DNA from: a virus | DNA: 64,000 nucleotides | IMG/VR virus record: IMGVR_UViG_3300021371_000004 | Coordinates: 1-64,000 of that record | Reading direction: 5' to 3' (one strand) | Shown: positions 12,682 to 32,517 of the stretch, piece by piece | Layout of the letters: each line of letters opens with the position of its first letter | Numbering within the stretch: the first letter of the stretch is position 1 | Made by a program: the position numbers and the translations under genes | Notes under the pieces: model-generated | The model's database searches: none | What the model was told of the DNA's origin: nothing | The model's input: only the letters and a program-made list of their open reading frames with translations

Positions 12682-12825
12682 TCAAACTAAACCGTATACC
12701 ATTACTCCTGTCCAAGTTAAAACCCAAGCAGACAAGACGAGGTTTAAGAAAAACTCTCTCTTGCGAATGCCCATTGTCTGTGCTTTCTTGTCAAACGGTG
12801 TTTCAATAAAATCTACTTCAGGCAC
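12682..12825 (-). CDS. 47-aa single-TM protein (not in ORF track)
   Basis: GTG start with AGGAGG SD, overlapping regA stop; C-terminal FFLNLVLSAWVLTWTGVMVYGLV. Confidence 0.55.
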   Translation of the reverse strand: MPEVDFIETPFDKKAQTMGIRKREFFLNLVLSAWVLTWTGVMVYGLV

Positions 12826-15094: not shown

Positions 15095-15120
15095 ACTACA
15101 AACTCCATAATATAAAATAA

Positions 15121-15197
15121 GGTGAGCAGTTTTCCTCTTGCTCAGGAGACGGGTGCGGGTTGCACCGACCAGAGCGAGTTTAGTGTCTTCTCGGGAC
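15121..15197 (-). ncRNA. Candidate structured intergenic RNA (two H-type pseudoknot-like units around a hairpin)
   Basis: GTC-C-CGAG-AA-GAC-ACTAAA-CTCG; GGTGC-AACCC-GCACC; CTC-CT-GAGCA-A-GAG-GAAAAC-TGCTC. Confidence 0.4.
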
Positions 15198-15206
15198 GTT
15201 CGCATA

Positions 15207-16003: not shown

Positions 16004-16678
16004 TTATCCTTCGTATGTGGATGATTTTTCGAGAGCGATGTAGTAAACCACATCAACAGTTTTGCAAGTGAACTTGCTGATCAAACGCGAGGAAACCTCG
16101 ACGTCATAGTCGCCAGAGATCAACTTCAGGTTGGCGATGTTCATAACAAAGCAGAAATTATCTGACTTTGCTGTTCCTGGAACCGTGATGTTGAACGCAT
16201 TTGAGGTAGCGTCTGTGTTGTCTACAACAGACAACTCAATACCACCCTCGGTCGCGGTCACAGAAACCTTGTCGTGACCCAGTGCTGCTGCTGCGCTTCG
16301 GATGCGCTTGAGCGTTGCTTCGTCCAAGGTGAACGTGACTTCTGCTTCGGGCATCGGAATATCCTTCGCCGGAGAAGTCAGAATACCAGGGTCACTGTAG
16401 AAATACTTGACGCTAGATCGACCAGAGGAATCGGATACCTTGACTGAAGAGTCGCCGAACTCCAACGTTGGAGCATCAACAAGACCAAGCACTGACAGGA
16501 ACTCATTCAGGTTATAAACCCCGACGGTCTTGTCAAACGACTGGTCAAGATTAGCAACCGCCATGACGTTCTTTGCTTCGGCGATAGTCTTGACGACATT
16601 GCCTTCGTTCATCACGATATTGTCTTGGATGGTAGCAAAGTTCTTCAGTACTGCCATCGTGTTTTCATTTAACTGCAT
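16004..16678 (-). CDS. gp45: Sliding clamp
   Basis: VLKNFATI, VYNLNEFLSVL, NLKLISGDYDV, YYIALE. Confidence 0.95.
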   Translation of the reverse strand: MQLNENTMAVLKNFATIQDNIVMNEGNVVKTIAEAKNVMAVANLDQSFDKTVGVYNLNEFLSVLGLVDAPTLEFGDSSVKVSDSSGRSSVKYFYSDPGILTSPAKDIPMPEAEVTFTLDEATLKRIRSAAAALGHDKVSVTATEGGIELSVVDNTDATSNAFNITVPGTAKSDNFCFVMNIANLKLISGDYDVEVSSRLISKFTCKTVDVVYYIALEKSSTYEG

Positions 16679-16752: not shown

Positions 16753-17247
16753 CTACAGACCCACCTCATACTCAACAGATATCCCGTCTTGGTTTGGGGT
16801 CATACTCACCCCGAATCTTCCCCCTCGAGGGTTCCTCTCGGGCGTCTCGAGGTCGAGTATCACCCTCGGCGACCACTTATACCCACCCGCTACCAGCGGG
16901 TCTCGAGGAGCGCGAGAGGCGTCCAGAGGGACGGTATCGACCCCTGAAACCCTCTCCCCTCGGGCGTCTCCAGCGTCCCCGAGAGGGCGTTGGAGGGTGT
17001 CGAGAGGACGCTGGAGGGCGTTGATACAACCCTCCAGACGCGCCTCGAGGACGCTGAAACGGGTCTCTAGGGCGGTATACTGCGCCTCGAGTAGGGCGTA
17101 ATCGGGTTCCTCGAGGAGGTAATCGACCTCTTCAGTGGGTGGTGCGCCACGAAAGACCAATGTCAGTGGTACAGCAACGCATACGACTATGATAGTCGAG
17201 TCTACGAATCCCCAAAAACGATCCCCCGCAGGGTCAACTTTACTCAT
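16753..17247 (-). CDS. Hypothetical TM + coiled-coil protein in a GC-rich stretch
   Basis: Start overlaps the AAA+ gene stop; N-terminal TM segment; atypical composition. Confidence 0.5.
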   Translation of the reverse strand: MSKVDPAGDRFWGFVDSTIIVVCVAVPLTLVFRGAPPTEEVDYLLEEPDYALLEAQYTALETRFSVLEARLEGCINALQRPLDTLQRPLGDAGDARGERVSGVDTVPLDASRAPRDPLVAGGYKWSPRVILDLETPERNPRGGRFGVSMTPNQDGISVEYEVGL

Positions 17248-18385
17248 CACCCTCACCGTCAACTATGACCGTCTCATCAACCTTGCTGTACAATTCCATG
17301 AATGCGCTCTTGGTCTCATCATCGAAACGGTTGGTACAAACTTCGATGGCAGTGGCGCGTTCGCCGAATATCTCATATGCCTTCACGATGTGAACCAGTC
17401 GGCGAGTTGAGATAATTTCCTCAACGCCACCATCAAGGTAGGTCTTGCGGATAATATCTGCCCAATCAACCAACTTGCCGATGAAGTGATCGTCAGAGAT
17501 ATGCTTGCGCAGGATCTTCTTCTCGATCGCAATGGAAGGGTATTCCTGCTCAAAGGTCACGGGGAAACGCTCAAGGAATGCTTCGTTGAGTACGTTTGTG
17601 CCCATGAACTGACCATCGTCAGAACCCTTGCCCTTGGTGTTGGCAGTAGCAACCACCGTGAAACCATTGGCAGGAGCAATGTACTCGCCAGTTTTCTTGA
17701 TGAAGTACCCTGAACCTTCCATGATAGACTGGAGGCACATAACCTTCCCAGGTGTCACCAAGTCAATCTCGTCGAGCAGGAGTACTGCGCCACGCTCCAT
17801 TGCTTTGATGACTGGACCTTTGAAGAATTTGGTCTCACCATTCACCAAACGGAAACCGCCAATGAGGTCATCCTCGTCGGTTTCTTCGGTGAGGTTGACA
17901 CGAATAACTTCGCGTTTGGACTTGGCACATGCCTGTTCAACCATGTAGGTCTTTCCGTTACCGGATAAACCTGTGATGAACGTCGGATAAAACATACCAG
18001 ACGCGATAACTCGCTCAACCATCTTGAAGTTGCCAAACGGGACATACATCTTGTCCTTCGCTGGTATAAGGTTGTCGCTGAAACCGCTGGAATCCGCGTT
18101 CAGGTTGGCAACCACTGTGGCAGGGGCAACTTGGGCAGCAGGTTTGACCGCAGCGACCTTCGCAGGTACGGAGATCTTCGGAACCTTGCCAGAAGGTTGT
18201 GACTTGCCCAGTGGGGGAAAGTGATATTCGCCGTTATCGGCAAGGTTGTTCGCGTTCAGTACGCGATACAGAGAGTTGATGTCATTCGCCTTCGCGACAT
18301 CCTTGATCTGCTCACGCGACAACGTTCGGGGTTCGTCACCGTACTCATCGGCGAGGAGGGCGACTAACAATTTTGCTTTACTCAT
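17240..18385 (-). CDS. MoxR/CobS-like AAA+ ATPase
   Basis: GLSGNGKT, DEDDLIGGF, LLLDEID, ATANTKGKG, NEAFLERF, STRRL. Confidence 0.92.
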   Translation of the reverse strand: MSKAKLLVALLADEYGDEPRTLSREQIKDVAKANDINSLYRVLNANNLADNGEYHFPPLGKSQPSGKVPKISVPAKVAAVKPAAQVAPATVVANLNADSSGFSDNLIPAKDKMYVPFGNFKMVERVIASGMFYPTFITGLSGNGKTYMVEQACAKSKREVIRVNLTEETDEDDLIGGFRLVNGETKFFKGPVIKAMERGAVLLLDEIDLVTPGKVMCLQSIMEGSGYFIKKTGEYIAPANGFTVVATANTKGKGSDDGQFMGTNVLNEAFLERFPVTFEQEYPSIAIEKKILRKHISDDHFIGKLVDWADIIRKTYLDGGVEEIISTRRLVHIVKAYEIFGERATAIEVCTNRFDDETKSAFMELYSKVDETVIVDGEGDE

Positions 18386-18429
18386 AATATAGACTCACTT
18401 TTGTTTACTAATTCACTCAACGAACAACT

Positions 18430-18490
18430 ATTATCCCGCAAATAGGGTACAAGAACAACTTCCAAATAACCCTGTAATATCAACAACTTA
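18430..18490 (-). promoter_or_regulatory. Class A promoter with IHF site
   Basis: TTGTTC-17-GATAAT; TATCAACAACTTA at 18478-18490, 19 bp from the -35. Confidence 0.75.
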
Positions 18491-20767
18491 CGCAACCCGC
18501 TTCACTATATCCTGCAGCAGAGCACGTGCTTGCTTCTGTCCAGTGGAGGTTTTACCGAATGCCCGTTTCAGCGCACCCTTTGCCGAACCTGCTTCCACGT
18601 CCATGCTCGCATTGCTGACTACCATGTTTTTGCTCCACACGAGGTACATCTCATCGTAACCTTCTACATCGAGCACAGCGTGGAAACCTTTCTTCAACAA
18701 CTTGTAGTTTTCTTCTGCAGTATCATAGGAAACGCGCATGCAACGCATCGCACCCATTGCCGCCGATCTGCCTCTTCCGGAAAATACAAAGTATCCGAGT
18801 ACAGAACTGCCAGTGACATCTTTGAGTATTGACAGCAGAGTGCCAGTATATTTTTCGCCGTTTTTCGGAGCAGAGTATGTCTTTTTGCCATAACGGAGAG
18901 TGATATAGTTTCCTGCCATCTTTCGCGGCAGATCCAGCATATAGTCACGATCACCACTTCCGGCAACATACTTGAGACCGTGCGACGCGCCATCGGTCAG
19001 GAATATAGTGTTCATGATATCCAGACGGTGCTGCTTCTTGAACTCCTCGATCTTGGGTATCAACGCAAGTATAGATGAGTCAAGGGGAGTGCCGCCCAAA
19101 TAGAATGGAGTGAATGTCGGTTTCCATCCGCCCGCATGACGAGCGAGGGTACAAGAACCCATCAATGCATGAGAAATAAACAGCATATCAGACTTCGACA
19201 TCTTTTCGTTGAAGATCTCGATCATACGCAAACATCGATCTGGATTAGCAGTCATCAAACCAGTATCTTGTTCTCTCGGTTCTTCTCTCCTTGCAAGGTA
19301 GTCTGTGAAACCATATACACGGAAAGGCACATTGATTCGGCGACAGAAGTGCGTCATAAGCATAGTTTGCTTCACGACATCTGAGAGTATTTCGGTCATA
19401 GAACCCGAGAGGTCGACCACCATTATAAATCCGTGATTCTTGCCTTTCGGGATACTCTTGACCTTCTTGAATATGTCGTCGCTGCAGCGATAGTTGTTCA
19501 TCTTGAGAGTATCAAGGGTGCCAGAGCGAGAGATACGAGTACGGGAAAGTTGTGTTGCTGACTTCTTCATCTCGAATTCCTTCACCATCAGGGAGATAGA
19601 CCGACGAGCACTGCTGTACCATTCGTCATAGACCTCAGCACCTGATTCCAGTGTTCTCTGGTAGTCGCTTTGGTTATCCATATCTTCACGACACATAGCA
19701 ATCACGTCTTTGTAACCAATGAAGTATTGCTCGTGGTTGTCTGCACGGAGTTCGATATTCAAAACATCTATGCGGGAAGCATCACCAGCATACTCACGTT
19801 CTATAGATTCGCGGAGTGCTTCATCGGTGAATGAACGTGGACCATCTTCTTCTTCAGATACACCACCCTCTGTGCCGCCAGTGTTACCCCACTCTTCTTC
19901 GCCATCGTTGTCATCTTCTTCACCATCCTCTTCGGGCGAGGAGGGGGATGATTCGGTGTCAGACTCTTCTTCGCTGTCACCGTCACCGTCACCGTCGGAT
20001 GAAGAGGAATCTTCTTCCTCTTCGCCTTCGGAAGATTCGTGCGTGGACCCAGACTCACCATCTTCGGCGTCATCCGAGTCGGCATCATCTTCGTCTTCGT
20101 CAAAGTCCTCGTGCATAGAGTAACCAGAACCATCGGAATAGTCGCCCGAGTCATCGTCGCCATCTTCAGACTCTGATTCTTCGTTGCGTTCTTCTTCCTC
20201 TTGCTTCTGCTCTTCTTCTTTTTGTTTGCAGAACTCAAACAATTCGTCAGTCACTTCAACAACTTGTTCCCAAGTCTCGAGTTTGGCGATACGGTCGACC
20301 CACTGAACTTCATCTTCAGCGAATGGAGTGTTTGCCGCCATGCCGCACTTGAAGTGAGTGTTGATTCGGTCAATGAGACCAAATTCGGCAGCGTCTTTAG
20401 AACCAAAGAAACCTTTGGACATCAATTGCTTGTATCCAGAAACAAAGTCGCGTCGCAGTCCAGGGTACTTGCGCTGGATCAATTTCTCGATACGCGCATC
20501 CTCGACCACATTCAGAAAAGACTTATAGTTGCCACCGCGTGAACAAACTGCTTCATGCCATCCCTCTTCGGGTGTATAAAGCGCATGCCCCACTTCGTGC
20601 CCAGTCAGCAGTGACTGAACCGCAGCGTCAACGTCTGCCCACAAAGGCAGGGTCAGCACGCGATTCTTCACGTCGAACATAGCAGTAGGAACATTTTCCT
20701 GTACCACCGTTATATTCTCGTTGGCGAGCAGTTTAGCAACGCTGGAGTTTGTATTGTCAGTAATCAT
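18488..20767 (-). CDS. CobT-like protein: zincin-like N-domain, acidic linker, VWA domain
   Basis: HEVGH...NVVEDARIE; long D/E/S tract; MIDAS DLSGS, GGTPL, FLTDG. Confidence 0.88.
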   Translation of the reverse strand: MITDNTNSSVAKLLANENITVVQENVPTAMFDVKNRVLTLPLWADVDAAVQSLLTGHEVGHALYTPEEGWHEAVCSRGGNYKSFLNVVEDARIEKLIQRKYPGLRRDFVSGYKQLMSKGFFGSKDAAEFGLIDRINTHFKCGMAANTPFAEDEVQWVDRIAKLETWEQVVEVTDELFEFCKQKEEEQKQEEEERNEESESEDGDDDSGDYSDGSGYSMHEDFDEDEDDADSDDAEDGESGSTHESSEGEEEEDSSSSDGDGDGDSEEESDTESSPSSPEEDGEEDDNDGEEEWGNTGGTEGGVSEEEDGPRSFTDEALRESIEREYAGDASRIDVLNIELRADNHEQYFIGYKDVIAMCREDMDNQSDYQRTLESGAEVYDEWYSSARRSISLMVKEFEMKKSATQLSRTRISRSGTLDTLKMNNYRCSDDIFKKVKSIPKGKNHGFIMVVDLSGSMTEILSDVVKQTMLMTHFCRRINVPFRVYGFTDYLARREEPREQDTGLMTANPDRCLRMIEIFNEKMSKSDMLFISHALMGSCTLARHAGGWKPTFTPFYLGGTPLDSSILALIPKIEEFKKQHRLDIMNTIFLTDGASHGLKYVAGSGDRDYMLDLPRKMAGNYITLRYGKKTYSAPKNGEKYTGTLLSILKDVTGSSVLGYFVFSGRGRSAAMGAMRCMRVSYDTAEENYKLLKKGFHAVLDVEGYDEMYLVWSKNMVVSNASMDVEAGSAKGALKRAFGKTSTGQKQARALLQDIVKRVA

Positions 20768-21140: not shown

Positions 21141-21201
21141 ATTATGGAGCAATTGAGGCACAAACACAAGTTGTGAAAAACTGAATAGAATCAGGAACTT
21201 A
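21141..21201 (-). promoter_or_regulatory. Class A promoter, near-duplicate of the 2287-2347 element
   Basis: TTGTGT-17-CATAAT; variant site AATCAGGAACTTA at the same 19-bp offset. Confidence 0.7.
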
Positions 21202-21745
21202 CGCAACCCAGCATATAATCGACAACGATACGTGTGTCATCTGGGGTTTCGTGGGGGAATTGTACCACACATCCCTTTTCAGTACCAAACAGCGTATGCT
21301 GGTCACCGAATTTTTCGAGGATGTTGGTGCACTTGGTGCGGGTTGTCTGGATGAATTTCTCAGACTGTTCAGAACCACGCTGCTTATATCTGCGCTCACG
21401 TTCAGCGTCTGATACGGTCAGGTGGATTATAGTGAGGTCATCACCTGCTGCTGTGAAGAAACCTGCGTTGTTGAGTCGGTCACCTTCGCCAAATATAACT
21501 TCATCCGGTTTGGTTGAGATCCACTCAACTGCTTTTGGTGCTACTGCCATTGAAAGCAGGTCTGTGCCTGAGAAAGTTTTCTCGGGGACATACTTACCAA
21601 GAACTCGAACATTGCCTGATACATGGGTGTCAAGCAGGTCTGTTACTCGCTCCTGTTTCCAGTTCGGACTAAATTCTTCCATGAATTGCTTCATGATGGT
21701 AGACTTACCCGTTCCAGGAATACCCATGATGTATATCAGTTTCAT
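21191..21745 (-). CDS. P-loop nucleotide kinase, putative 5-hydroxymethylpyrimidine DNA kinase (5-HMUDK-like)
   Basis: GIPGTGKST, LGKY..FSGTDLLS, GEGDRL, R..QRGS.QSE; close to an amino acid:DNA transferase. Confidence 0.8.
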   Translation of the reverse strand: MKLIYIMGIPGTGKSTIMKQFMEEFSPNWKQERVTDLLDTHVSGNVRVLGKYVPEKTFSGTDLLSMAVAPKAVEWISTKPDEVIFGEGDRLNNAGFFTAAGDDLTIIHLTVSDAERERRYKQRGSEQSEKFIQTTRTKCTNILEKFGDQHTLFGTEKGCVVQFPHETPDDTRIVVDYMLGCVSS

Positions 21746-22035
21746 TGTAAAAAGGACTCCAAAGTTCCTGCGGCGGGGTAGTCTGCCTTTGACACATATC
21801 CTTTTCTGTTATATCCCTTTTCCAGTGCGCGTGCAGTAGTATCATCGTTCCAACAATTACAGCAGTACCCTTCGTGACCTTTGTACTGTTCGCTGATCAG
21901 GAATTCATTTCCACAGGTGCGACAGTCAAACGTGGTCAACATTTCCGTTCCATATAAAGTCATGTGCTTTACCTCAGATGGGGGTGGTACTTCTCTCGAC
22001 TGACGACCGATAACTTGGGAATTCTTACGTTTCAT
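21742..22035 (-). CDS. Zn-finger protein with C-terminal clamp-binding-like peptide
   Basis: CRTC...CCNC; ends GTLESFLQ; GGAG SD before MKRKNS. Confidence 0.6.
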   Translation of the reverse strand: MKRKNSQVIGRQSREVPPPSEVKHMTLYGTEMLTTFDCRTCGNEFLISEQYKGHEGYCCNCWNDDTTARALEKGYNRKGYVSKADYPAAGTLESFLQ

Positions 22036-22061
22036 ATAGGTTCTCCACAATTTGATATCCT

Positions 22062-22090
22062 ATTCTAACCGAAACAGAATAGGGTGTCAA
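22062..22090 (-). promoter_or_regulatory. Class B promoter
   Basis: TTGACA-17-TAGAAT(AG). Confidence 0.8.
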
Positions 22091-22097
22091 CAACTCA

Positions 22098-23090
22098 TTA
22101 TGCAAAGAATGCCTCGAGTCCACCAGCGTTTCGGTCTACTGGTTCAAAGTTGCCTGTATCCAAAAACAGGTTATATAATTCAGGGTCAATCAGGTCTGTC
22201 AACCATTTCTCTTCCAGACACTCTCGCCTTGCTTGCCACAAGGGTTCCCAGTCTATACCTTCCCACTTATCTGCCTGAACTTTCTTGATCTCTTCTGCCT
22301 GTCGGTCAATGTAGAAACCAAGGTAGCGACCACGACTCCGGCGAAACAACTTCTTGAAGGAGCACAGACTGGTTTCCATAGAAAAGAAGTCTGCCTTGTC
22401 GGCAACATGCGGGTAACGTAACTTGACCTCTTGTAGTATCTCCCTGCCATTTGCTTCGAGAAAGTCTATCTGAGTTGCGTCGAGTTTCACTTTGTTCTTC
22501 TTGGAGTCAACCCACTCAGGTTTGTCCATGGCATAACACATACCGTTACGGTGCGACTTTGACCCACTGCGGTCATGGAACCAGAGACTATCAACGTCAA
22601 CCTTTATGCCACATGTCTGCTTGAGTGTCTGTATATAAAACCAAGAGGTGTAGCGACCAAACTTGTGCCAAGAGTTGACAGTGTCCCACAAAGAGTAGAA
22701 GTCCTTGACAGGGTCACCAACAAAGTTGGCAGTGATTGCTTCATGCTGTGTACGACCACCAACGAAGTCTCTATACGATTCAAACTGTTGGGGCAGGTGA
22801 CCCTTGTTCCACTTGGTGTCTGTCTGGTAGCGTAGGCGTTTGTAGTTGGCGTTGTTCCAAGAACGCAAACGCTCCAGACCCACCAACTCCATATCTGGAA
22901 ATTCGTTCCAAACAACGTATGAGGTTGGCCAGTAATAGGTAGTGCCATAGATCCAAGAGATCCATAGACGCTGTTCTGTGTTATACTCAAACCGATCAAA
23001 GAAGTAATTCTGTAGGTATAGGGATGGGTCACAGTCCTCTATTTCAAGACCACGACCAAACCACTGAGTGAATATCTCCTTATTGTTCAT
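22098..23090 (-). CDS. Amino acid:DNA transferase (aGPT-pyrophosphorylase clade 2-like)
   Basis: D.DP.LY, EQRLW..WIYG.TY, YQTDTKW, HhH-like FGRYTSWFY.Q.L, SHRNG, METSLCSFKK, RYLGFYIDRQ. Confidence 0.8.
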   Translation of the reverse strand: MNNKEIFTQWFGRGLEIEDCDPSLYLQNYFFDRFEYNTEQRLWISWIYGTTYYWPTSYVVWNEFPDMELVGLERLRSWNNANYKRLRYQTDTKWNKGHLPQQFESYRDFVGGRTQHEAITANFVGDPVKDFYSLWDTVNSWHKFGRYTSWFYIQTLKQTCGIKVDVDSLWFHDRSGSKSHRNGMCYAMDKPEWVDSKKNKVKLDATQIDFLEANGREILQEVKLRYPHVADKADFFSMETSLCSFKKLFRRSRGRYLGFYIDRQAEEIKKVQADKWEGIDWEPLWQARRECLEEKWLTDLIDPELYNLFLDTGNFEPVDRNAGGLEAFFA

Positions 23091-23737
23091 AGAAACGCAT
23101 CCAAAGAGAAGTGTGTCGGTTCAAATAGTGTTTCGCGCATCCAGTATTCTCCCACTGACTCAATGGCAGTCTCGACCTTTTCGGTTTTCTTGACACCAAA
23201 GTTGTGGGACTCAAGGGATTCTTCCTTCAGTTTTTCTGCTACCTTGCTTGGCGGGATAGCAACAGAAGGATCCTTCAATGCAAGTTCACGAAACGTCAAC
23301 TGCTCATGTTGGTTCGGGAATATAGGCACGTCACAACGCAGAGAACCAGATGGGTCAACTGCCCAGAAGATGGTGCCATTACGTTTGTGCCATGTAACAG
23401 AAGATGGGGTACAGGACATCTTGAGTCTCTGCATGCCTTGGTTATGCGCCTCTTCCATCACCTTCCAGTATACTTCGGAAGCATAACCTTGCCCCTCCTC
23501 TCCTTCGAGGGTTACTATCTCATACAGGTTGGCATACTTTGACCGCGCACTGAATGTGATGAACACCAGAGCAACCGGATCAATTCCACCTTCCATCAAA
23601 GCAAACGGTGGTTGCTTCACATAGTTCTTGAACCGAAACCAGAGGTTGTGTGAAGACTTCAGGAACTTCGTGTTTGTTCCTTCTGGTTGGGAAGCAATGA
23701 GCGTTTCCACTTCTTCTTTGTTAAGTCGCTTTAGCAT
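23087..23737 (-). CDS. GNAT-family acyltransferase
   Basis: NLYEIVT..GEEGQGYAS (motif A)...SVTWHKRNG (motif B); ends SLDAFL. Confidence 0.7.
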   Translation of the reverse strand: MLKRLNKEEVETLIASQPEGTNTKFLKSSHNLWFRFKNYVKQPPFALMEGGIDPVALVFITFSARSKYANLYEIVTLEGEEGQGYASEVYWKVMEEAHNQGMQRLKMSCTPSSVTWHKRNGTIFWAVDPSGSLRCDVPIFPNQHEQLTFRELALKDPSVAIPPSKVAEKLKEESLESHNFGVKKTEKVETAIESVGEYWMRETLFEPTHFSLDAFL

Positions 23738-24408
23738 GGTTGCAGATCTGCCAGTTCTGGGTCAAAGTATGTTCTATCCATATGTAGACCGAACCCACCG
23801 AAAGTATATTTGACAAGAGGTTCGCAACTGGAAACGTTATCAGTAATTCCTGCTCTTCGGAGAATATCTCTCGTAGAAGCAAACACCATTCCGTTTTTCC
23901 GGTTCGCCATCCAAAGTGGACGTTCATGATTACGAAACGCAGACAGTTCTCCGCCATCGATAGCAACAACTGCCATGCTTCGGTCACGGTACTTTTCGAG
24001 AGGAGTATCTCCTGCTTCGATACAACGCAGTATCAACTCAGAATCGTTCAGTGTTTCTGTTTCATATTCCCATATGTCAGGGTCTTGAGAAATAACTCCG
24101 TTGTGGGCAATTGCTGTTTCTCTGCCCTGAAACGGTTGGTTGTATCGCAGGTCAGAAGTTGAGTATCGGATATGCCCAATCATGGTCATCTTCTGTGTAG
24201 CAGGGTCAACAAACTCACGAGGGTCATACTTCTCGATAAATTCATAAGCAGCAATTGGTTCTTTGTGCGTATGTAGTTTGCCGCAGGAAAGGTATGTGAC
24301 TCCCGTGGCATGCTTACCACGAATCATACTTTCCCTGAACAAACGCTTGACCATCTCGAGGTCTTCCGCGTAGACTTCTTCTAGGTGTACACCAATTACT
24401 CCGCACAT
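23731..24408 (-). CDS. Stand-alone class II (Ntn) glutamine amidotransferase domain
   Basis: MCGVIG N-terminal Cys, RGKHATG, GHIRYST, QPF, AHNGVI, DSELI, RN.ERPLW. Confidence 0.88.
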   Translation of the reverse strand: MCGVIGVHLEEVYAEDLEMVKRLFRESMIRGKHATGVTYLSCGKLHTHKEPIAAYEFIEKYDPREFVDPATQKMTMIGHIRYSTSDLRYNQPFQGRETAIAHNGVISQDPDIWEYETETLNDSELILRCIEAGDTPLEKYRDRSMAVVAIDGGELSAFRNHERPLWMANRKNGMVFASTRDILRRAGITDNVSSCEPLVKYTFGGFGLHMDRTYFDPELADLQPC

Positions 24409-24584
24409 GGTATTTCTATCCATTTGTATATGAATTTGGGATACACAAATAACGCCTTACGATAAGTGTATGTCCCTGTGTGTAAGTGTATGCCATTCTT
24501 CGTGAGAGGATTTGAACCAATGGCGATCTCTTTGTAGAAAGAGATTGTGCCGTTTTTATTCTCATGGTACCAGATCTGCTTCAC
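24396..24584 (-). CDS. Hypothetical protein
   Basis: 62-aa coupled ORF inside the cluster. Confidence 0.45.
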   Translation of the reverse strand: MKQIWYHENKNGTISFYKEIAIGSNPLTKNGIHLHTGTYTYRKALFVYPKFIYKWIEIPCAE

Positions 24585-24853
24585 TTTTCTTCTTCCAAAT
24601 CATGGACGTGGAGTGCAATCAAACCGTAGTGGAGAACTTTCAGCAAGTCCTTTCGGTTCTTACCCTCTTTCTTACCGTACCGTTGGGTGTACTTGATGAC
24701 GTTTCCTAAACAGAAACCCTCTCCATGACCCGCATCGATAACAAACTCGGTTGTCTGGACTTTGTCCTGCGAGTAGTGTTGTCCATAAGTAATGTCAACA
24801 TAATCTCGGAGTTCTTTGATCAGGGCATCTTCGTTATATTTGTAATCGATCAT
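24581..24853 (-). CDS. DUF3310-like protein (often linked to nucleotide-metabolism genes)
   Basis: TYGQHYS, GFCLGNVIKY.QRYGKKEG....DLLK.LHY. Confidence 0.8.
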   Translation of the reverse strand: MIDYKYNEDALIKELRDYVDITYGQHYSQDKVQTTEFVIDAGHGEGFCLGNVIKYTQRYGKKEGKNRKDLLKVLHYGLIALHVHDLEEEK

Positions 24854-24860
24854 ATCATTC

Positions 24861-26258
24861 CTATCCAAAAAATTCATCAAGAGTACCAGCAACATCGAAC
24901 GACTCAGGGTGATACTTGCGAGTCATCTCCTCACCACCGTTGTCTGTCAACCAGTCGTACCATTCATTGTCGTCCCACATGCTCGGTGATACACCGTTCC
25001 AGTATGGTCGCCACAGTTTGTGTTCTTCGTTCAGTCGACGCGAGTCAACGTATGCTCGGCGCAGATGCTCATATTCCCATGTACCCAACTTCAACATATC
25101 TTCTCGGAAGTAGAATACAAGGGACATACGCATCAGGTCATCTTCGCCAGAGTCTGGTGCTTCAATTGGGGTGTTGGCGTGGATGACGCGCATGTTGTCA
25201 ACCAACAGTAAGTCGCCTGGGCGGATATTGATAGCAGCGCGAACTTCTGGGCAGACCAACATGCCGCCTTTCCAGTCTTTCTTACCATCACTTATCACAG
25301 TCAGGTTGCTGAAACCTTCGTTCAACGAACCAGAGTCACGGTGACATGCCATACGTGCATTGCGTTCCTTTGTTGTCGTGTTTACCGTAATGGTAGTGAA
25401 CGTTGTGTCCTCTCCAATCAGAAACTTTGGATCCATTCGGTCAGCGCATTTCTTCTGACGACCATAGCGCACAGGCAGTAGTTCGGCAAAGGTTGCGTCT
25501 AATCGACGAGCAAATGGATAGCATTTCTCAAATACTTCGCGATTATGATCGGTGAAAGCAGTAGCACGACCATAAGGTATGCGAGGATAACGACCATAGA
25601 AACCAGCAATGCCAGACCATATTGCGGTAGCGTACATAGTATCGGAAATAAAGTCCTTGCGCAGAAGTTGTACATATGCCTTTGCTTCCTCGAGAGTCAT
25701 AACTCGCAGTTTGTTCAGTAGTATTGGAAAGAAATCAGTGTAAGTCCCAAACTCTGGTTCAACTTTGGTGCGCAACCAAACGCCACCACGGTTTTCATCG
25801 TCGTTGGGGATAGCAGCAAACTCGGCGAGTGGATCAGAACCGTCGATGTTGGGCGGTTGCCCTTCTTCAAACCAACGCAGAACGTTCAGTTGGTATTGCG
25901 TTACCCAGTCACGGTTGCCTTGAGATTCTTCTCTTGGACCCGCTGCCATGCCTCTGTTGTTTGACTCAATTGCTGCGTCAAACAGACCAGCGTATGCACC
26001 GTCTTGTTCTGCTTGAGTGAATACGTTTTTACGGAATTTAAACGCGATACGGTCTTCAGAAAGTTCCTCGTCTTCAACGCCCATGGAAGGCATATAGAAG
26101 TCCGCATCGGAGTCAACGACGATGTCATAGTGACTTTCGTCTGGATATTGCCCCTTGAGTGCTTCTGAATCTTCGAGAAACAAGGCGACATACACGTCCT
26201 GCCCCTCTGAACCAGTGCTCTTTTGCCAAGAACGACCGCCTATTTGTACTGTTTCCAT
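24861..26258 (-). CDS. TET/JBP-family 2OG-Fe(II) 5-methylpyrimidine dioxygenase
   Basis: TFTTITVN, ACHRD (HxD), GGMLVCPE....IRPGDLLLVD, HANTPI, RMSLVFYFRE; ends TLDEFFG. Confidence 0.88.
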   Translation of the reverse strand: METVQIGGRSWQKSTGSEGQDVYVALFLEDSEALKGQYPDESHYDIVVDSDADFYMPSMGVEDEELSEDRIAFKFRKNVFTQAEQDGAYAGLFDAAIESNNRGMAAGPREESQGNRDWVTQYQLNVLRWFEEGQPPNIDGSDPLAEFAAIPNDDENRGGVWLRTKVEPEFGTYTDFFPILLNKLRVMTLEEAKAYVQLLRKDFISDTMYATAIWSGIAGFYGRYPRIPYGRATAFTDHNREVFEKCYPFARRLDATFAELLPVRYGRQKKCADRMDPKFLIGEDTTFTTITVNTTTKERNARMACHRDSGSLNEGFSNLTVISDGKKDWKGGMLVCPEVRAAINIRPGDLLLVDNMRVIHANTPIEAPDSGEDDLMRMSLVFYFREDMLKLGTWEYEHLRRAYVDSRRLNEEHKLWRPYWNGVSPSMWDDNEWYDWLTDNGGEEMTRKYHPESFDVAGTLDEFFG

Positions 26259-26733: not shown

Positions 26734-28452
26734 TCAGTTTTTGATTTGTGAGAAGTTTTTAACTTTGGTGAATTCTATCTTTGACTCAAACTTGCCTTCG
26801 AGTATCTCGCCCTTGTGAGATATAATGAAGACGTTAGTGTCTTCACCAAGGGTGTGGATAATCTTCAGGAGGTTATCGATACCTGCTTCGTCGAGAGAAG
26901 AATCAAAGGTCTCATCGAGTATGAGGAGGTTGGTGCTGATGCTGTTCTTCATCTTGGCAACCTGCCTCCAAGTGAATAGCAGTGCCAAGTCAATACGTTG
27001 CTTCTCTCCTTCAGAGAAAGAATCGTATGAGAAAGAATCTCTATGGCGTGAGCGAATCGTTTCTTCAAACTTTTCGTCAAGGTCAAAGTGGACATAGAAG
27101 TCCAAGATGGAGAGGTACTGGTTGACCATCTGGTTAATCACAGGCAGATACTGCTTGATAACCTTGGTCTTGATTCCGCTGTCTTTCAACATCTCTGATA
27201 TGACGGTGTTGTACGCAGATTGGTCGTTCATTGTAGAACGATCGGCGACCAGTTCATGGTATTCTTTCATGAGTTCATCGTATTCGGCATTCGCCGCTGC
27301 CATGTCAGACTGATTGCTACTCAGGGAAGAAATTTCTTCTTGTGTTTTCTTTATGTTTGCAGTGTAAGTTGCCATGGTACGGACATTGCTGTTTATCTCG
27401 CTGAGCAGAACCTGAACCTCTTCCATCTTAGATTCGAATTCAGAGATCTTGCTGTTGGTTGAATCTTTTTCGGCAACAAGTTCTACTTTGGCAGTTTGCA
27501 ACTCTGTTGCCGCTGCCCTTGCCTGTTCGAGTTTTTGTTCACGGAATCCCTCAGCAATGGTTTGGGTGCAGGTTGGACACTCTTCATTATTCTCGTAGAA
27601 TTTGGCTTCCTTCACGAGGTTTTTTATCTTCGTGTTGAACTCTGCCTCAAACCCATTCAACCTCTCCAGATTACCTTGTTGTGCTTTCAGGAGAGGGGAA
27701 ATTTCCTCAGTTACCCCTTCCGCAACTTTTTGGTTCTTGGCATTCTCATCAACGAGTTTGTTTATCTCTGCTGTGGTTTCTTCGATGAAATCTTCTTTCT
27801 GTTTCTGTACATCGTGGTTCAACTTGGAAACGTCGCGGATATACTTCTTCTGCGCGTCAACTTTAGTTTCGTTCATCGCGATTTGGTGGTACACGGTATT
27901 CAGTTTCTCTTTCAGTACCGCATTCTTCTCCTTGAGCAATGCATTCATCTTGGAGAAAACGCCAATGTCCAGAAGGTCTTCGATGACATCCCGTCTGTTG
28001 AGCGCGGACAACTGCATGAATGGTATGAACGAGGAAGAACCAAGCACAACAACTTGGTGGAAGGTCTTGTGGTTGAGTTTCAGGATATTCTGTTCAAGAA
28101 CCTTCTGGTACTCCTTGTTATGGGAGTTCTGGTTTATCATCGTGCCGTCGACATATATCTCAAACTTGATCGGTTTGATGCCGCGCACAACTTTATAGTT
28201 CTTGCTTCCCACGGAAAACTCAACCTCAACAACCATCCCCTTGTCGTTGATCGAGTTTACCAACTGTGCTTTCTTGATACTGCGGTGGGACTTGCCGAAC
28301 AAACCATAGGATATGGCATCAAGCATGGTGGACTTACCCGAACCATTCTGACCTACAACAAGGGTGTGCTTGCTTCTGTCAAGTTGTATCTCTGTCCAGT
28401 TGTCGCCTGTAGAGAGAAAGTTTTTGTATCGGACTGTCTTAAATATAATCAA
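26734..28452 (-). CDS. gp46: Recombination endonuclease ATPase subunit (Rad50-like)
   Basis: GQNGSGKS, CPTC zinc hook, FSEGEK, LILDETFDSSLD, IISH. Confidence 0.96.
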   Translation of the reverse strand: MIIFKTVRYKNFLSTGDNWTEIQLDRSKHTLVVGQNGSGKSTMLDAISYGLFGKSHRSIKKAQLVNSINDKGMVVEVEFSVGSKNYKVVRGIKPIKFEIYVDGTMINQNSHNKEYQKVLEQNILKLNHKTFHQVVVLGSSSFIPFMQLSALNRRDVIEDLLDIGVFSKMNALLKEKNAVLKEKLNTVYHQIAMNETKVDAQKKYIRDVSKLNHDVQKQKEDFIEETTAEINKLVDENAKNQKVAEGVTEEISPLLKAQQGNLERLNGFEAEFNTKIKNLVKEAKFYENNEECPTCTQTIAEGFREQKLEQARAAATELQTAKVELVAEKDSTNSKISEFESKMEEVQVLLSEINSNVRTMATYTANIKKTQEEISSLSSNQSDMAAANAEYDELMKEYHELVADRSTMNDQSAYNTVISEMLKDSGIKTKVIKQYLPVINQMVNQYLSILDFYVHFDLDEKFEETIRSRHRDSFSYDSFSEGEKQRIDLALLFTWRQVAKMKNSISTNLLILDETFDSSLDEAGIDNLLKIIHTLGEDTNVFIISHKGEILEGKFESKIEFTKVKNFSQIKN

Positions 28453-28460
28453 GGTTTACC

Positions 28461-29522
28461 TCAAACAATATCTTGTGATTGTGCTTCTGTCATAAGGTCT
28501 AAGACCTCATTTCTAATACGCTCTTTGTCAAGGGCAGTTTCTACATTCTCGACATATGCGCTGAGAAGGGAAGTCGTGTCTTCGATTTCGATGCCCTCGT
28601 CAGATACGTTTTCCCCAGTAAACTCGGAGAAGTCCTCTTGTATCTTCAGGTCGTAAACGTCACGTTGCATAACTCGGTCAACGAATCTGTCGAAGGTGAA
28701 AGAGTCAGACTTATTCATGACAACAACCTTAACAAACTGGTTGTCGAACCTGGAAGTGTCGAATTCGCTATAGTCTTCCTTCGTGTCATCGTAGTAAACA
28801 CGCTGGAACATAGTCAGAGGGTTTCTAACAGGAGTGAGTTCCCTTGTTTCTGTATCGAGGATGTGGAAGAACTTATCGTCGTGTGCATCGTTCCAGAAGA
28901 ATTCCATCTGGGAACCAAGGTAGTGGATATTGTCTTGGTTAGACTTGACGTGGTAATGACCGGAAAGAACCAACTCAAACCTGTGCAGGTTTTCAGCAGA
29001 CATACCGTGTGTACAAGGCACACCGCGCAGCATGTCAAAACCATTTAACTCGAAGTGCCCGCCGATAACATCAGCAGCGCAATTCTTGAGAAAGTCGTGA
29101 CACTTCTTTTCGTTTTCTGGGCATATCCAAGGAACAAAACCAAACTTCAATCCATCGTAATCAAGTACGCTTGGATCCATTATGATATTCACTTCGTTGA
29201 TGTAGTGTCCCATCAACTCCTTCAGAGAATTCAATTCGTTGGTGTTCTTGAAGTATGTGTCGTGATTACCACAGATAATATCCATGGTAATGTTATCAGC
29301 GCGTAACCTGTCCAGAAAAACTTCTCGGTTACTGTTGAGTGCTTTGACGTTTATCTGTCGTCGATTTTCGTAATAATCCCCCAAGTGGATTATATTTTTG
29401 ATATTGTGTTCTGCCAGATACGGGAAGAATACGTTGTTGTAAAAATTTTCTTGGTAGGCAATGAATATATCACTGCTCTGCCTGATGCCACAATGGGTAT
29501 CATTCAGTATCGCCAACTTCAT
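28461..29522 (-). CDS. gp47: Recombination endonuclease subunit (Mre11-like)
   Basis: DTHCG, HLGD, GNHD, GHFE, SGHYH. Confidence 0.96.
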   Translation of the reverse strand: MKLAILNDTHCGIRQSSDIFIAYQENFYNNVFFPYLAEHNIKNIIHLGDYYENRRQINVKALNSNREVFLDRLRADNITMDIICGNHDTYFKNTNELNSLKELMGHYINEVNIIMDPSVLDYDGLKFGFVPWICPENEKKCHDFLKNCAADVIGGHFELNGFDMLRGVPCTHGMSAENLHRFELVLSGHYHVKSNQDNIHYLGSQMEFFWNDAHDDKFFHILDTETRELTPVRNPLTMFQRVYYDDTKEDYSEFDTSRFDNQFVKVVVMNKSDSFTFDRFVDRVMQRDVYDLKIQEDFSEFTGENVSDEGIEIEDTTSLLSAYVENVETALDKERIRNEVLDLMTEAQSQDIV

Positions 29523-29524: not shown

Positions 29525-30112
29525 TTATTCCTCGAAGAAATTAGAGAGGTCTGAGTCGACACGCACAGTGCGTTTCGTCTTCATAACCTTCTTGTGCTCT
29601 TTGACCTTTTCGTCTTTCTCCTTGACGTCATCTATCCTTCTTCGCAGGTTATCGACAAAGGACTGAACTGCCTTGGCGACCTGCGGGTCTTCATCGGCAT
29701 CAATCATGAACTCTTCGAGTCCTGACTCTGCCAGATAATTCATTTTAACTTCCTGCTGCCTTTGTTCTTTCTTGATGCGCCGAAGGAATGCATACCAAGA
29801 GATCTGGGTGAAGTACCCAAACGCATTTGGTTTACCCTTGCGTGTTGCTGCTTCAACGTCATAGTTCTTGCATGCACGGAGGCAATTCTCAACAGCATCC
29901 ATTACCATCTCTTCACGGTAGGTGTAACGAACAAAGTTGGATTTGTGAGAAAGACCCTCTGCGATTTTGAGAAAACACTCGGCAACGTAGGTGGGCATGA
30001 TGGGCGGCACAACCCCATCATTGTCTGCTTTATTGACAGCGGTGACATGGTCAACAACTGCCTGTGAGAACTGTGCATTGTTGACGTAATGCGGACGTTC
30101 ACTTGGTTTCAT
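29525..30112 (-). CDS. gp55: Late-transcription sigma factor
   Basis: HYVNN, FLKIAEGLS..NF..YTYREEM..DA.ENC, NAFGYFTQI...AFLRRI.KE. Confidence 0.95.
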   Translation of the reverse strand: MKPSERPHYVNNAQFSQAVVDHVTAVNKADNDGVVPPIMPTYVAECFLKIAEGLSHKSNFVRYTYREEMVMDAVENCLRACKNYDVEAATRKGKPNAFGYFTQISWYAFLRRIKKEQRQQEVKMNYLAESGLEEFMIDADEDPQVAKAVQSFVDNLRRRIDDVKEKDEKVKEHKKVMKTKRTVRVDSDLSNFFEE

Positions 30113-30174: not shown

Positions 30175-30584
30175 TCTTCGGTCAATAGTTTGGGGGATGA
30201 AGGAAATGACAGAACATTGCTGCTCGAGTCCTCTGTTTCTTCTCCAGTTGTAGTAGATGCATCAGTGAGCATCTCTTGTATGCTAACAAGGGAGTTGGTG
30301 TACTGTTCTATCACCTTCTTACTCGGAGCATTGACAGTTACTATGGATGATGGGTTGATGGAAATCAATACGTCCAACCGCTCGGGGTATGAGATAAATG
30401 GTCGTAAGATATAGTACGAGGTCTTCAAAGATTCGTCATAATCCGGATCTTCGAGTTCCACAGCAACCATTTCAAGTGCGCAGTTGACACTAAACGTAGA
30501 GTCATTTTCGTTGAACTTCTGTGCGATAATTTCTTGTCCAGTTACAAGTTTGACTTGTACAATCTTTTCGTTTTCGACGTTCAT
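30171..30584 (-). CDS. Hypothetical protein downstream of uvsW
   Basis: VKLVTGQEII pattern; usual position in T4-like genomes. Confidence 0.75.
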   Translation of the reverse strand: MNVENEKIVQVKLVTGQEIIAQKFNENDSTFSVNCALEMVAVELEDPDYDESLKTSYYILRPFISYPERLDVLISINPSSIVTVNAPSKKVIEQYTNSLVSIQEMLTDASTTTGEETEDSSSNVLSFPSSPKLLTED

Positions 30585-32044
30585 AGTTTCACCTTATGTA
30601 TTTCTAAATTGAATTTTTCAGTGTTGTACATCTTAACCCTCTCCCCTGCGTGCTTTAGGGTGAAGTTCTTTTTCGACTTAATGGATAAGTCGTCCGACAA
30701 GTCAAACAATAGTGTACCCTGCCCATTATCTGATTTGCGTAATCCCCTACCAATGGACTGCAAAACCTTCACCTGCGATTTAGAAGGCGAGGCAAATACA
30801 ATGTTGTGTAGGTTCTTTATATTGATACCCGTGCTGAACGTTCCCAGGGAAGCAACGATGATGGCACCATCACTACGCTCAACGATTCCTCGAATCGCCT
30901 CACGGTCAGAAACATCAGTACCACCGTGCACATAGAAGACAGTATCGCTCTTTTCCTTGATCATTCCGTAGAGGACTTCTCCATGCTTCTCCACGAACTG
31001 ATACAGCACAAGGGTGTTACCTGTTTGCGTGAGTGCTATGTTTCGTATCAACTTGTTTCTGGGTTCATACCCAACAAGGAAGTCGACTTCTTCCTGATAT
31101 GTTCGGTCTTTGTTTCTTTGTCTTTCCTCTTTTGGGTAGTCCAATAGTAGCATATCGATGTGCAGTTCAGCGAGTGTGCCACTGTCCTGTAGATCCCTTG
31201 TGAACGTGACCCTCTTTGTCGGACCAAACAACCCTTCCAAAACCAGTTTGTTTACCTGTGTGCCATCCAAGGTTCCCGTTGTACCAAACCGATATTCTGC
31301 TTCGGTGCACTTATTCATCATGGTAGTGAGTGATTTTGCTTTGAACAGGTGACACTCATCGCCAAATACGCATCCAAAGGCATCGAACCAGTCCTTTCCA
31401 AGACGATAAACAGACTGCCACGTGGTAACGATAACCCGCTTCTTCGTTATCTTATCCTTGCCGGAATAGATCTTGTGGACTTCGGTTTCTACGTCCATCC
31501 CATAGTCGGAAAAGTCCTTGTACATCTGCTCTACGAGGGAAGTGGTTGGGACGACAACAAGGACAGACTTTTCATAACTGTCCAGATACCAACGCATGAG
31601 ATTGTAGATGATAAATGACTTACCAGAACCAGTTGGTGAAAGAAGCAAGCAACGTTTGTGTTCTATGGCGTGAGTGATTGCATCATACTGGTAGTCACGT
31701 GGAGCAAATGGCATGCCCCAAATTGCCTGAGAAGAAACTAGGTGTTGGTGGTTAACGGTGTTTCTTTGGTTGGGCAGTCCGTAATCACTGTGTTCCATCT
31801 GTAAGTGGTAGTGTCTGTCTGCCGCGAACCTACAGAGTTTTGTATAGAGTCCTACATTCAGTTCTGAAGTAACGCCGGAAAACAGGCGGATTCTTCCGTC
31901 CCATTTGCGCTGCTTGAAGGCGGGCATCCACTTATAACCTGGAGCAAAAAACGCAAAGTATTCGTTCAACTCCGCTCGGATTCCTGCATCACAATCAACG
32001 TACATCATAGAATGGTTTAACATCTTAACCGTAAGTTTTCCCAT
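30581..32044 (-). CDS. uvsW: SF2 DNA helicase
   Basis: PRDYQ, SPTGSGKS, DECH, GTTGT, QSIGRGLR. Confidence 0.96.
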   Translation of the reverse strand: MGKLTVKMLNHSMMYVDCDAGIRAELNEYFAFFAPGYKWMPAFKQRKWDGRIRLFSGVTSELNVGLYTKLCRFAADRHYHLQMEHSDYGLPNQRNTVNHQHLVSSQAIWGMPFAPRDYQYDAITHAIEHKRCLLLSPTGSGKSFIIYNLMRWYLDSYEKSVLVVVPTTSLVEQMYKDFSDYGMDVETEVHKIYSGKDKITKKRVIVTTWQSVYRLGKDWFDAFGCVFGDECHLFKAKSLTTMMNKCTEAEYRFGTTGTLDGTQVNKLVLEGLFGPTKRVTFTRDLQDSGTLAELHIDMLLLDYPKEERQRNKDRTYQEEVDFLVGYEPRNKLIRNIALTQTGNTLVLYQFVEKHGEVLYGMIKEKSDTVFYVHGGTDVSDREAIRGIVERSDGAIIVASLGTFSTGINIKNLHNIVFASPSKSQVKVLQSIGRGLRKSDNGQGTLLFDLSDDLSIKSKKNFTLKHAGERVKMYNTEKFNLEIHKVKL

Positions 32045-32076: not shown

Positions 32077-32517
32077 TTAGGCACCTGCTTCAAACTGCTT
32101 CCAGCGAATTGCATTACCTATCGTCTGGTGACGCCACTTCAAGGTGTCGATTATCTCTTTAAGTGCTTCTAGCATGGTTTTGAAGTATACAACCTTTGCT
32201 TCGCTCTGTTGTATCTCTGGGTCGCTGTCATAGTAGTATGACAGGTCACCCTTCATTATCTTCAAACCATCGAATGGGTCGGGGTTCCAACCAAGCGCAG
32301 AAACTTCTTCTTGGGACAACTTGCCGTTGTACCAGAGAAACTTGTTCTTGAGAAGTATTTGCTGTTTCTCTTCTGCTCGTTTCAGAAGCAATTTGGTTTG
32401 TATATGATAACCCAAATACTTCGCGTGCAACTTGGGAGTGTCACGGGAAGCTTCATCAAGGTTATGTCCAATCTCACAGTCTTCGCCCCACTGGGCAAGG
32501 ATATCATTTAAGTCCAT
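32077..32517 (-). CDS. uvsY: Recombination mediator
   Basis: PKLHAKYL, WYNGK, R.QTI.NAI.W..FEAG. Confidence 0.92.
   Translation of the reverse strand: MDLNDILAQWGEDCEIGHNLDEASRDTPKLHAKYLGYHIQTKLLLKRAEEKQQILLKNKFLWYNGKLSQEEVSALGWNPDPFDGLKIMKGDLSYYYDSDPEIQQSEAKVVYFKTMLEALKEIIDTLKWRHQTIGNAIRWKQFEAGA

Follow-up and report, generated by a model that had tools for sequence, protein, structure and literature searches.

Polymerase-like C-terminal tails on DNA-modifying enzymes of a marine T4-like phage as probable sliding-clamp-binding peptides

Introduction

The first 64,000 nucleotides of the IMG/VR virus record IMGVR_UViG_3300021371_000004 (positions 1 to 64,000; this whole stretch is referred to as the window) carry a cluster of genes for putative DNA base-modifying enzymes. 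Three proteins of the cluster, a TET/JBP-type dioxygenase, an amino-acid:DNA transferase (ADDT) and a GNAT acetyltransferase, end in nearly the same few residues as the DNA polymerase of the same phage, gp43. The question raised by this locus is why enzymes that modify DNA should carry the tail of a polymerase. In phage T4, gp43, gp55 and gp33 each bind the clamp through a C-terminal epitope, and these motifs are freely interchangeable (PMC2988020). It is proposed here that the tails of the TET/JBP, ADDT and GNAT proteins are, with good probability, peptides that bind the sliding clamp gp45 and so place thymidine hypermodification on DNA-loaded clamps. The ending of a small zinc-ribbon-like open reading frame (ORF) in the cluster is probably a gp45-binding peptide too, and modification would probably be tied physically to replication.

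The source is a marine T4-like myophage whose genome is a single contig of 99,048 bp, the window being its first 64 kb. Phage C48C1 (Kyanoviridae) is the closest named relative at the DNA level. Almost every gene of the window is found on the minus strand.

The tails and the genes that carry them

The genes on which the argument rests are listed below, with family calls made by Pfam or PHROGs profile matches. The modification cluster as a whole spans 21191-26258.

10098-12623, minus strand: gp43 DNA polymerase, 841 amino acids, ending VSLEDFFG, the reference tail
16004-16678, minus strand: gp45 sliding clamp, 224 amino acids, Pfam PF09116, the proposed docking partner
21191-21745, minus strand: P-loop nucleotide kinase, 184 amino acids, PF18751 at 4.4e-19, ending DYMLGCVSS
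21742-22050, minus strand: small CxxC...CxxC zinc-ribbon-like ORF, no Pfam match, ending GTLESFLQ
22098-23090, minus strand: ADDT (ADDT/aGPT-Pplase), 330 amino acids, PF18724, ending GGLEAFFA (tail codons at about 22101-22124)
23087-23737, minus strand: GNAT acetyltransferase, 216 amino acids, PF00583, ending FSLDAFL (tail codons at about 23090-23110)
23731-24423, minus strand: glutamine amidotransferase-like protein, 230 amino acids, PF13522, ending ELADLQPC
24581-24895, minus strand: DUF3310 protein, 104 amino acids, PF11753, ending HVHDLEEEK
24861-26258, minus strand: TET/JBP-type DNA base dioxygenase, 465 amino acids, PF12851, ending GTLDEFFG (tail codons at about 24864-24887)
29525-30112, minus strand: gp55 late sigma factor, 195 amino acids, phrog_234 at 4.6e-50, ending SDLSNFFEE

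A first-pass annotation of this DNA had quoted the C-termini of gp43, TET/JBP, ADDT, GNAT, the zinc-ribbon-like ORF and gp55 as variants of one peptide, and all six are present in the sequence at these genes. It had also described the kinase, the amidotransferase and the DUF3310 protein as tail-less. This is borne out both here and in orthologues on related contigs, where the amidotransferase ends in DLQxC or DLQ, the DUF3310 protein in HVHDLEEG. (the last position being any residue) and the kinase without the motif. The same annotation had allowed that LxxF[FL] endings might be equally frequent among unrelated ORFs of the genome, which is not so. Among 128 non-overlapping minus-strand ORFs of the whole genome, the pattern L..F[FL].{0,2}$ is found in seven, as against an expected 0.14 from random tails of the same composition or 0.22 from the internal frequency of the motif. 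The carriers are gp43, gp55, TET, ADDT, GNAT, the zinc-ribbon-like ORF and one baseplate protein. A stricter pattern, [STG]L[DES].F[FL], occurs six times in the proteome of 31,762 residues, each time at a C-terminus, and the TET, ADDT, GNAT and zinc-ribbon-like proteins end only 0-1 residues past F[FL]. When C-termini were scored with BLOSUM62 against the polymerase core SLEDFF, the values were 21 for TET (p~0.0000), 19 for ADDT (p~0.0005), 17 for gp55 (p~0.002) and 14 for GNAT (p~0.0075). Glycosyltransferase and 2OG-oxygenase-like proteins of the virion region (53949-55363) have no tail and serve as negative controls within the genome.

The seventh carrier, which the first-pass annotation had not listed, is a baseplate protein (PF12322) encoded outside the window at genome positions 80772-81482 on the minus strand and ending GLSDFF. 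Its homologues end alike, with GIDDFF in C48C1 and GMENFFV in DLP6. As a further clamp client it was rejected: the ending falls inside the conserved PF12322 domain, and the resemblance is probably a coincidence.

Identity of the tailed proteins

An end-to-end alignment with T4 gp43 (PDB 9ea3) covers the C-terminal 100 residues of gp43, with ..EEDSVSLEDFFG lying over ..EEKASLDFLFG and thus SLEDFFG over T4 SLDFLFG. Relatives of gp55 on five related contigs retain DLSxF[FL]E[EG]. The clamp itself matches the RB69 and T4 gp45 structures 1B77/1B8H and 1CZD at E 5e-26, of which 1B8H is a clamp-peptide complex.

The ORF at 24861-26258 is predicted to be a TET/JBP dioxygenase by family, fold and iron triad, an assignment that covers the enzyme and not its substrate base (T or 5-methylcytosine, 5mC). 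It scores 58.6 bits against PF12851 (cut-off 34.9). Its AlphaFold2 (AF2) model, with a predicted local distance difference test (pLDDT) value of 88.9, has the double-stranded beta-helix of TET enzymes, and the closest PDB folds are CcTet, TET2 and NgTET1 (Foldseek, E down to 5e-10). The HxD...H iron triad, H306, D308 and H360, is invariant in the alignment. By its match to PF18724 (83.4 bits, cut-off 26.2, covering profile positions 11-229 of 232), the ORF at 22098-23090 is a putative amino-acid:DNA transferase. The ORF at 23087-23737 is marginal by sequence, with 21.1 bits against PF00583 (cut-off 20.7). Its AF2 model (pLDDT 95.8) has a clear fold, matching SpeG, GCN5 and RimI-type GNATs at probability 1.00 with SpeG-type amine acetyltransferases best, and it is predicted to be a GNAT-fold acetyltransferase, with no acceptor assigned.

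The zinc-ribbon-like ORF at 21742-22050 probably starts at the ATG at 21963, which would give a protein of 73 amino acids. No family above threshold was found for it in Pfam or PHROGs and no relatives in viral contigs, and a protein atlas gave unnamed clusters only. Because no relatives were found, its tail rests on a single sequence. The idea that it substitutes for gp33 was rejected, as a weak gp33 homologue sits elsewhere in the genome. This homologue, at genome positions 83784-84083 on the minus strand and outside the window, matches T4 gp33 at phmmer E 1e-5 and has SLNFL nine residues before its C-terminus.

Conservation of the tails

For each enzyme, the 120 highest-ranking homologues in the database, which reach down to about 55-60% identity, were examined for conservation. 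Of the TET orthologues, 116/120 carry the tail at their extreme C-terminus; 109/120 ADDT orthologues end in [GS]L[EG]x[FYW][FML], and a terminal [ST]L[ED]x[FW][LFM] is present in 104/120 GNAT orthologues. The reservation in the first-pass annotation that the tails might not be conserved in orthologues is not supported by these counts.

Column entropies were computed on homologues anchored at the invariant leucine, taken as position 0. Entropy is low (0-1.5 bits) at -1 (S/T, or G in ADDT), 0 (L), +1 (E/D), +3 (F) and +4 (F/L/M), and high (2.3-3.3 bits) at +2 and in the linker ahead of the motif. Usually 0 or 1 residue follows the motif in the orthologues. Confidence of the AF2 models falls over the last 6-12 residues, a coil and one-turn helix, to pLDDT 63-75 in TET and 73-84 in GNAT. 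By alignment and model, the tails appear to be conserved short linear motifs that follow a flexible linker of variable sequence.

Co-variation with the polymerase tail

If the tails share a binding site with the polymerase, they would be expected to resemble the polymerase of their own phage. In eight further whole phage genomes, the C-terminus of every ORF was scored against the tail core of the cognate gp43, with internal windows as the null, and the top matches were annotated with Pfam. HMUD2, HMUDK_hel and Dam below designate protein families; TAGT is the TET-associated glycosyltransferase.

ViI: polymerase VNLLSMMGKKG; ADDT gp247 SVNLMSLLKR; HMUD2 kinase gp243 SVSLLGLMRKA; HMUDK_hel protein SVNLLDRLKK / SVNLLDRLKKPE; 70-amino-acid zinc-ribbon protein KVNLLSLMRK
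Vibrio phage 1.255.O: polymerase KKARKLW; ADDT KTRKLW; HMUD2 KTKRLW; HMUDK_hel VTKRLW; 98-amino-acid protein KTKRLW
Cygsa01: polymerase SVMDFFS; ADDT DLMGFFQ; HMUD2 NVFDLF; HMUDK_hel SVLDLF; 103-amino-acid protein SLLDFF; terminase large subunit SLDDFFNN
C48C1: polymerase TLEDFFG; TET SLEEFFV; Dam-type methyltransferase (PF02086) STLDAFFG
DLP6: polymerase TLDSFFA; TET TLGDFFV; TAGT (PF20691) DLSSFFN
Cr30: polymerase DLSSLFD; TAGT-like protein DLSKLF, a weak PF20691 match below the cut-off

The chemistry of the tail differs by lineage, being acidic-aromatic, hydrophobic-basic, or basic and ending in LW, and the modification enzymes follow their own polymerase; ADDT relatives in Ackermannviridae likewise carry the tail type of their own polymerase. 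This lineage-wise co-variation is the strongest evidence that the tails would use a shared binding site. A scan of S-CBWM1 found no shared tails. In T4, a control scan with SLDFLF at p<0.001 returned only gp43, gp55 (SLDFLYEAND) and gp33 (TLDFLL), the three established clamp binders.

Some of the matches extend the range of proteins concerned. In C48C1, the Dam-type N6-adenine methyltransferase ending STLDAFFG is encoded directly downstream of gp43 (OQ984149, 33480-34364). The DLP6 glycosyltransferase, above the PF20691 cut-off, lies near the TET gene (KU682439, 24235-25098), and the Cr30 protein with the weak PF20691 match (KF301602, 55518-56444) has in DLSKLF the tail type of its cognate polymerase. 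The terminase large subunit of Cygsa01 (PF03237/PF17289; PP179332, 1-1710) ends SLDDFFNN beside a polymerase ending SVMDFFS; packaging may be linked to the clamp, or the ending may be a coincidence.

Small cysteine-rich, zinc-ribbon-like proteins of 69-103 amino acids bear the polymerase-type tail of their lineage in several gp45-encoding phages. They are found at the following positions.

Window, 21742-22050, minus strand
ViI (NC_015296), 30355-30567
Vibrio phage 1.255.O, 60010-60306
Cygsa01, 109399-109710
phiA8-29, 67069-67290
Related contig L024, 3590-3799

The Ackermannviridae-type members belong to phrog_4789, those of ViI and the Vibrio phage clearly and that of Cygsa01 weakly (E 0.004), and for the ORF of the window no relatives were detected. 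These small proteins may form a further class of clamp client. In related marine T4-like contigs without the modification cluster, other unannotated ORFs with clamp-type tails are found upstream of gp45: a 69-amino-acid ORF ending NLSDFLL on L024 and L027, and a 201-amino-acid ORF ending [AT]LEAML on L029 and L030.

Tails in phages with and without gp45

TET homologues were located in six cultured phages. The two with the tail, together with the phages whose TET has none, are as follows; the sixth, Cr30, is described with the points that weigh against docking.

C48C1: gp45 and gp43 present; polymerase TLEDFFG, TET SLEEFFV
DLP6: gp45 and gp43 present; polymerase TLDSFFA, TET TLGDFFV
S-CBWM1: neither gp45 nor gp43 found on searching the genome; TET without motif
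HTVC112P: neither gp45 nor gp43 found on searching the genome; TET without motif
P12024L (35.7-kb phage): genome not searched for gp45; TET without motif

The ADDT of mycobacteriophage Magpie, a phage without gp45 and gp43, carries no such tail either. A check proposed in the first-pass annotation was whether homologues in phages that lack gp45 lose the tail, and in the TET proteins of S-CBWM1 and HTVC112P and the ADDT of Magpie it is indeed missing. Among 50%-identity representatives of TET proteins with the long architecture, the strict tail is found in 13/18 at 33% identity or more and in 0/10 below.

Distant, shorter or multidomain TET/JBP proteins (P0428, P0446, P0459 and P0429) have T4-like endings, SLDDLFG in P0428, SLEDLFGE in P0446, and DLSEMFG or VLDIFG. 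Scans of viral contigs for the genomic context of P0428 and P0446 gave no match.

Predicted complex of gp45 and the GNAT tail

The first-pass annotation had suggested complex modelling of the gp45 trimer with the tails, and this was carried out for the trimer with GNAT residues 167-216, alignments being supplied for both. The interaction prediction score from aligned errors (ipSAE) was 0.52 (runs of 0.48, 0.52 and 0.58), the best of three controls reaching 0.00; the verdict is one of weak support. Calibration gave a pass for 58/80 solved complexes and 2/110 mismatched pairs; only 7 of the 80, and both passing mismatches, did so at 0.60 or less. A like complex, RB69 gp45 with peptide (1B8H), has already been solved, and the pass may therefore reflect memory or likeness only.

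Weighing the explanations

Several observations weigh against docking of the tails on gp45. In the complex just described the runs share at least 47% of contacts with a partner pLDDT of 41-44, a weak pass with low partner confidence; the GNAT fragment includes helices that pack on the GNAT domain, which may have lowered this confidence. The baseplate protein carries the motif, so that the motif alone is insufficient as proof of clamp binding. As the kinase, amidotransferase and DUF3310 protein of the same cluster have no tail, tethering does not extend to every member of the pathway. In TET, the linker is short, with about five variable residues between the motif and a conserved YHPEA segment, and the tether would be short as well. 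Cr30 has gp45 and gp43, and its TET has a degenerate ending, GATLF. In the polymerase-tail scan of T4 no ORF beyond the three clamp binders scored, and hence no T4 modification enzyme; such tails therefore lie outside the T4 paradigm. A partial exception to co-variation is phiA8-29 (KY914485, 30798-33913 and 26974-29862), where three adjacent modification enzymes share KTK[KR]LW and the polymerase ends VNVLKFFK. The enzyme tails are instead of the type found on the polymerase of Vibrio phage 1.255.O; either the clamp of phiA8-29 takes two tail types, or its modification module was acquired from another phage. Binding of T4 alpha-glucosyltransferase to gp45 (Sommer et al. 2004, as cited in PMC13216743) was confirmed by pull-down in a 2026 study, which attributes the ratio of alpha to beta glucosylation mainly to expression and not to clamp binding (PMC13216743). 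As the interaction did not prove to be the chief factor behind the ratio, clamp docking, even if real, may have modest effects.

A host partner was considered and rejected. The motif that binds the host beta-clamp is QL[SD]LF, and the L-x-x-F-F spacing of the tails fits the T4 type and not the beta-clamp type. It is unlikely that the tails bind some other common partner, such as a replisome or transcription hub or a scaffold that joins the modification enzymes, their likeness to the polymerase reflecting shared use of that partner. The three enzymes of phiA8-29 are closer in their tails to each other than to their polymerase, the tail-less members of the cluster (kinase, DUF3310 protein and amidotransferase) could be the scaffold, and the prediction with gp45 is only weak. 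Yet the tails match those of the phage's own polymerase in seven other phages that encode gp45, and in this genome that of gp55 as well; such tails in T4 are proven, interchangeable epitopes for gp45 (PMC2988020), the T4 scan gives three clamp binders only, and the KxRKLW type is the polymerase tail itself in Vibrio phage 1.255.O. Slightly less likely again is a regulatory role in place of catalytic tethering, in which abundant modification enzymes bind gp45 in competition with gp43 and gp55 and thereby time replication or late transcription, or allow modification to be checked before late expression and packaging. The three sites of gp45 are shared by the polymerase, the late sigma factor and the co-activator (PMC2988020), this genome would add at least four clients, and the terminase of Cygsa01 with its polymerase-like tail hints at wider coordination via the clamp. 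The clients, however, are overwhelmingly enzymes of DNA bases (TET, ADDT, the kinases HMUD2 and HMUDK, TAGT, Dam and GNAT), for which tethering to the substrate is the simpler explanation.

Already disfavoured, and very improbable, is the view that the endings are not interaction motifs at all, representing structural C-terminal elements, a degradation or localisation tag, or chance. Hydrophobic C-termini can serve as protease tags, and the baseplate ending, like those of its C48C1 and DLP6 homologues, does lie within a conserved domain. Enrichment is nevertheless some 30-50 fold above chance, and three unrelated folds share one motif, preceded by variable linkers and modelled at lower confidence. 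In addition, the tail is lost in phages without gp45 and tracks the polymerase tail by lineage, even in the case of the basic KxRKLW type with its different chemistry; no generic degron would behave in this way.

Docking on gp45 is the preferred explanation of the tails. The core of the proposal in the first-pass annotation, that the tails dock on gp45 like those of gp43 and gp55, is very plausible on strong comparative grounds: conservation in orthologues, absence of the tail from TET and ADDT relatives in phages without gp45, co-variation with the polymerase and the outcome of the T4 control. The one predicted complex adds weak support. Its further proposals, namely modification behind the fork, confinement of modification to phage DNA and the tail as independent support for DNA as the substrate of the GNAT, are inferences.

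Proposed mechanism

In T4, clamps are placed at primer-template junctions and nicks by the clamp loader gp44/62 and then track along DNA (PMC2988020; PMC9690074). In the phage considered here, the TET, ADDT and GNAT tails would dock at the site of gp45 that is used by the C-termini of gp43 and gp55. As gp44/62 would load gp45 only where phage DNA is replicating or nicked, and as the trimer has three sites, enzymes tethered to the clamp would reach a high local concentration on freshly synthesised phage DNA, which they could scan by sliding. The pathway may proceed from T to 5-hydroxymethyluracil (5-hmU) by TET/JBP, to phospho-5-hmU by the kinase, to amino-acid transfer by ADDT and then to tailoring by the amidotransferase and GNAT, giving an aminoacyl or acetyl-amino derivative. 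Such a post-replicative pathway would run on or behind the replisome, coupled to replication. From these comparisons we infer physical binding to gp45, coupling to replication, processivity and restriction to phage DNA.

A more general rule can be put forward, to which we give even chances: enzymes that act on nascent DNA may acquire the lineage-specific tail of the cognate polymerase in gp45-encoding phages (T4-like phages, Ackermannviridae and relatives), as a clamp-client code. Hypermodification would then be carried out from the clamp, which would set its timing, its extent and its restriction to self over non-self, and the tail would be a predictor of DNA-acting enzymes from sequence only. 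The clients so far would be TET/JBP, ADDT, 5-hydroxymethyldeoxyuridine (5-hmdU) DNA kinases, TET-associated glycosyltransferases, Dam, GNATs, small zinc-ribbon proteins and perhaps terminase.

Work on phage DNA hypermodification has treated its enzymes as free-standing. Should the tails dock on gp45, modification would be mechanistically coupled to replication, a viral counterpart of DNMT1-PCNA for a multi-step pathway. This would help to explain why modification is limited to phage DNA and, there, to a fraction of the thymines. Uncultured phages could also be searched by a simple sequence rule for further enzymes that act on DNA, and DNA could be assigned as the substrate, e.g., of GNAT and the small zinc-ribbon proteins.

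Other genes of the region

The tailed genes lie within the replication module. The genes of this module that have not been listed above are the following.

12825-13232: regA
13293-13712: gp62 clamp loader, phrog_225
14153-15205: gp44 clamp loader, phrog_168
17240-20767, minus strand: AAA/VWA pair
24396-24584: ORF of 62 amino acids, no Pfam match
26734-28452: gp46
28461-29522: gp47
30581-32044: UvsW
32077-32517: UvsY

The AAA/VWA pair sits between gp45 and the modification cluster. It consists of an AAA_5/CbbQ_C ATPase of 381 amino acids and a partner of 759 amino acids, which has a long acidic low-complexity region and no Pfam match; the pair resembles CobS/CobT.

Comparison with known systems

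Descriptions of polymerase-like clamp tails on hypermodification enzymes were not found in the literature searched, the coverage of which is incomplete, so that novelty is not proven. Papers on phage TETs, T-dioxygenases, thymidine hypermodification and DNA glycosyltransferases name clamp genes only as neighbours or not at all (PMC8989533, PMC8256090, PMC13229309, bioRxiv 2023.12.21.572611), and the word 'clamp' is absent from PMC8989533. In published in-vitro work, a phage TET and its associated glycosyltransferases carried His tags at their C-termini, where a tag would hide any terminal motif.

The hypermodification systems of ViI, M6 and PaMx11 (PMC8989533) resemble the present cluster in having a P-loop kinase, an ADDT/aGPT-Pplase and a GNAT-type acetyltransferase that act on 5-hmdU in DNA. 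The ViI proteins gp243 and gp247, shown biochemically to be DNA-acting enzymes (PMC8989533), bear tails like that of the ViI polymerase. The systems differ in the origin of 5-hmU, which here is presumably made in DNA by TET/JBP and there is incorporated as a nucleotide.

With the gp43, gp55 and gp33 epitopes of T4 and RB69 the tails share their place at the extreme C-terminus, a variable linker and a hydrophobic-acidic pattern (SLDFLFG, SLDFLYEAND and TLDFLL in T4; SLEDFFG, TLDEFFG, GLEAFFA and SLDAFL here), and gp45 and gp44/62 are encoded in this phage as well. The difference lies in the carriers, which here are predicted DNA base-modifying enzymes and there are polymerase and transcription factors.

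T4 alpha-glucosyltransferase with gp45 and DNMT1 with PCNA are the nearest precedents. The former is likewise a phage post-replicative DNA-modifying enzyme on a phage clamp, for which replication-coupled modification has been proposed. It has no polymerase-like C-terminal tail in the T4 scan, whereas here the motif is explicit, conserved and present across several enzyme families; with no T4 modification enzyme scored as tailed, the binding mode of alpha-glucosyltransferase may be a different one. DNMT1 binds PCNA via a PIP box (PMC9690074) and is, like the enzymes considered here, a DNA-modifying enzyme with a short clamp-binding motif, aimed at newly replicated DNA. That system is eukaryotic, with an internal PIP box and maintenance methylation, in contrast to a viral clamp, a C-terminal motif and multi-step thymidine hypermodification. 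The clamp-binding peptide of the T4 type was already known; its carriers here would form a new, broad class of clients.

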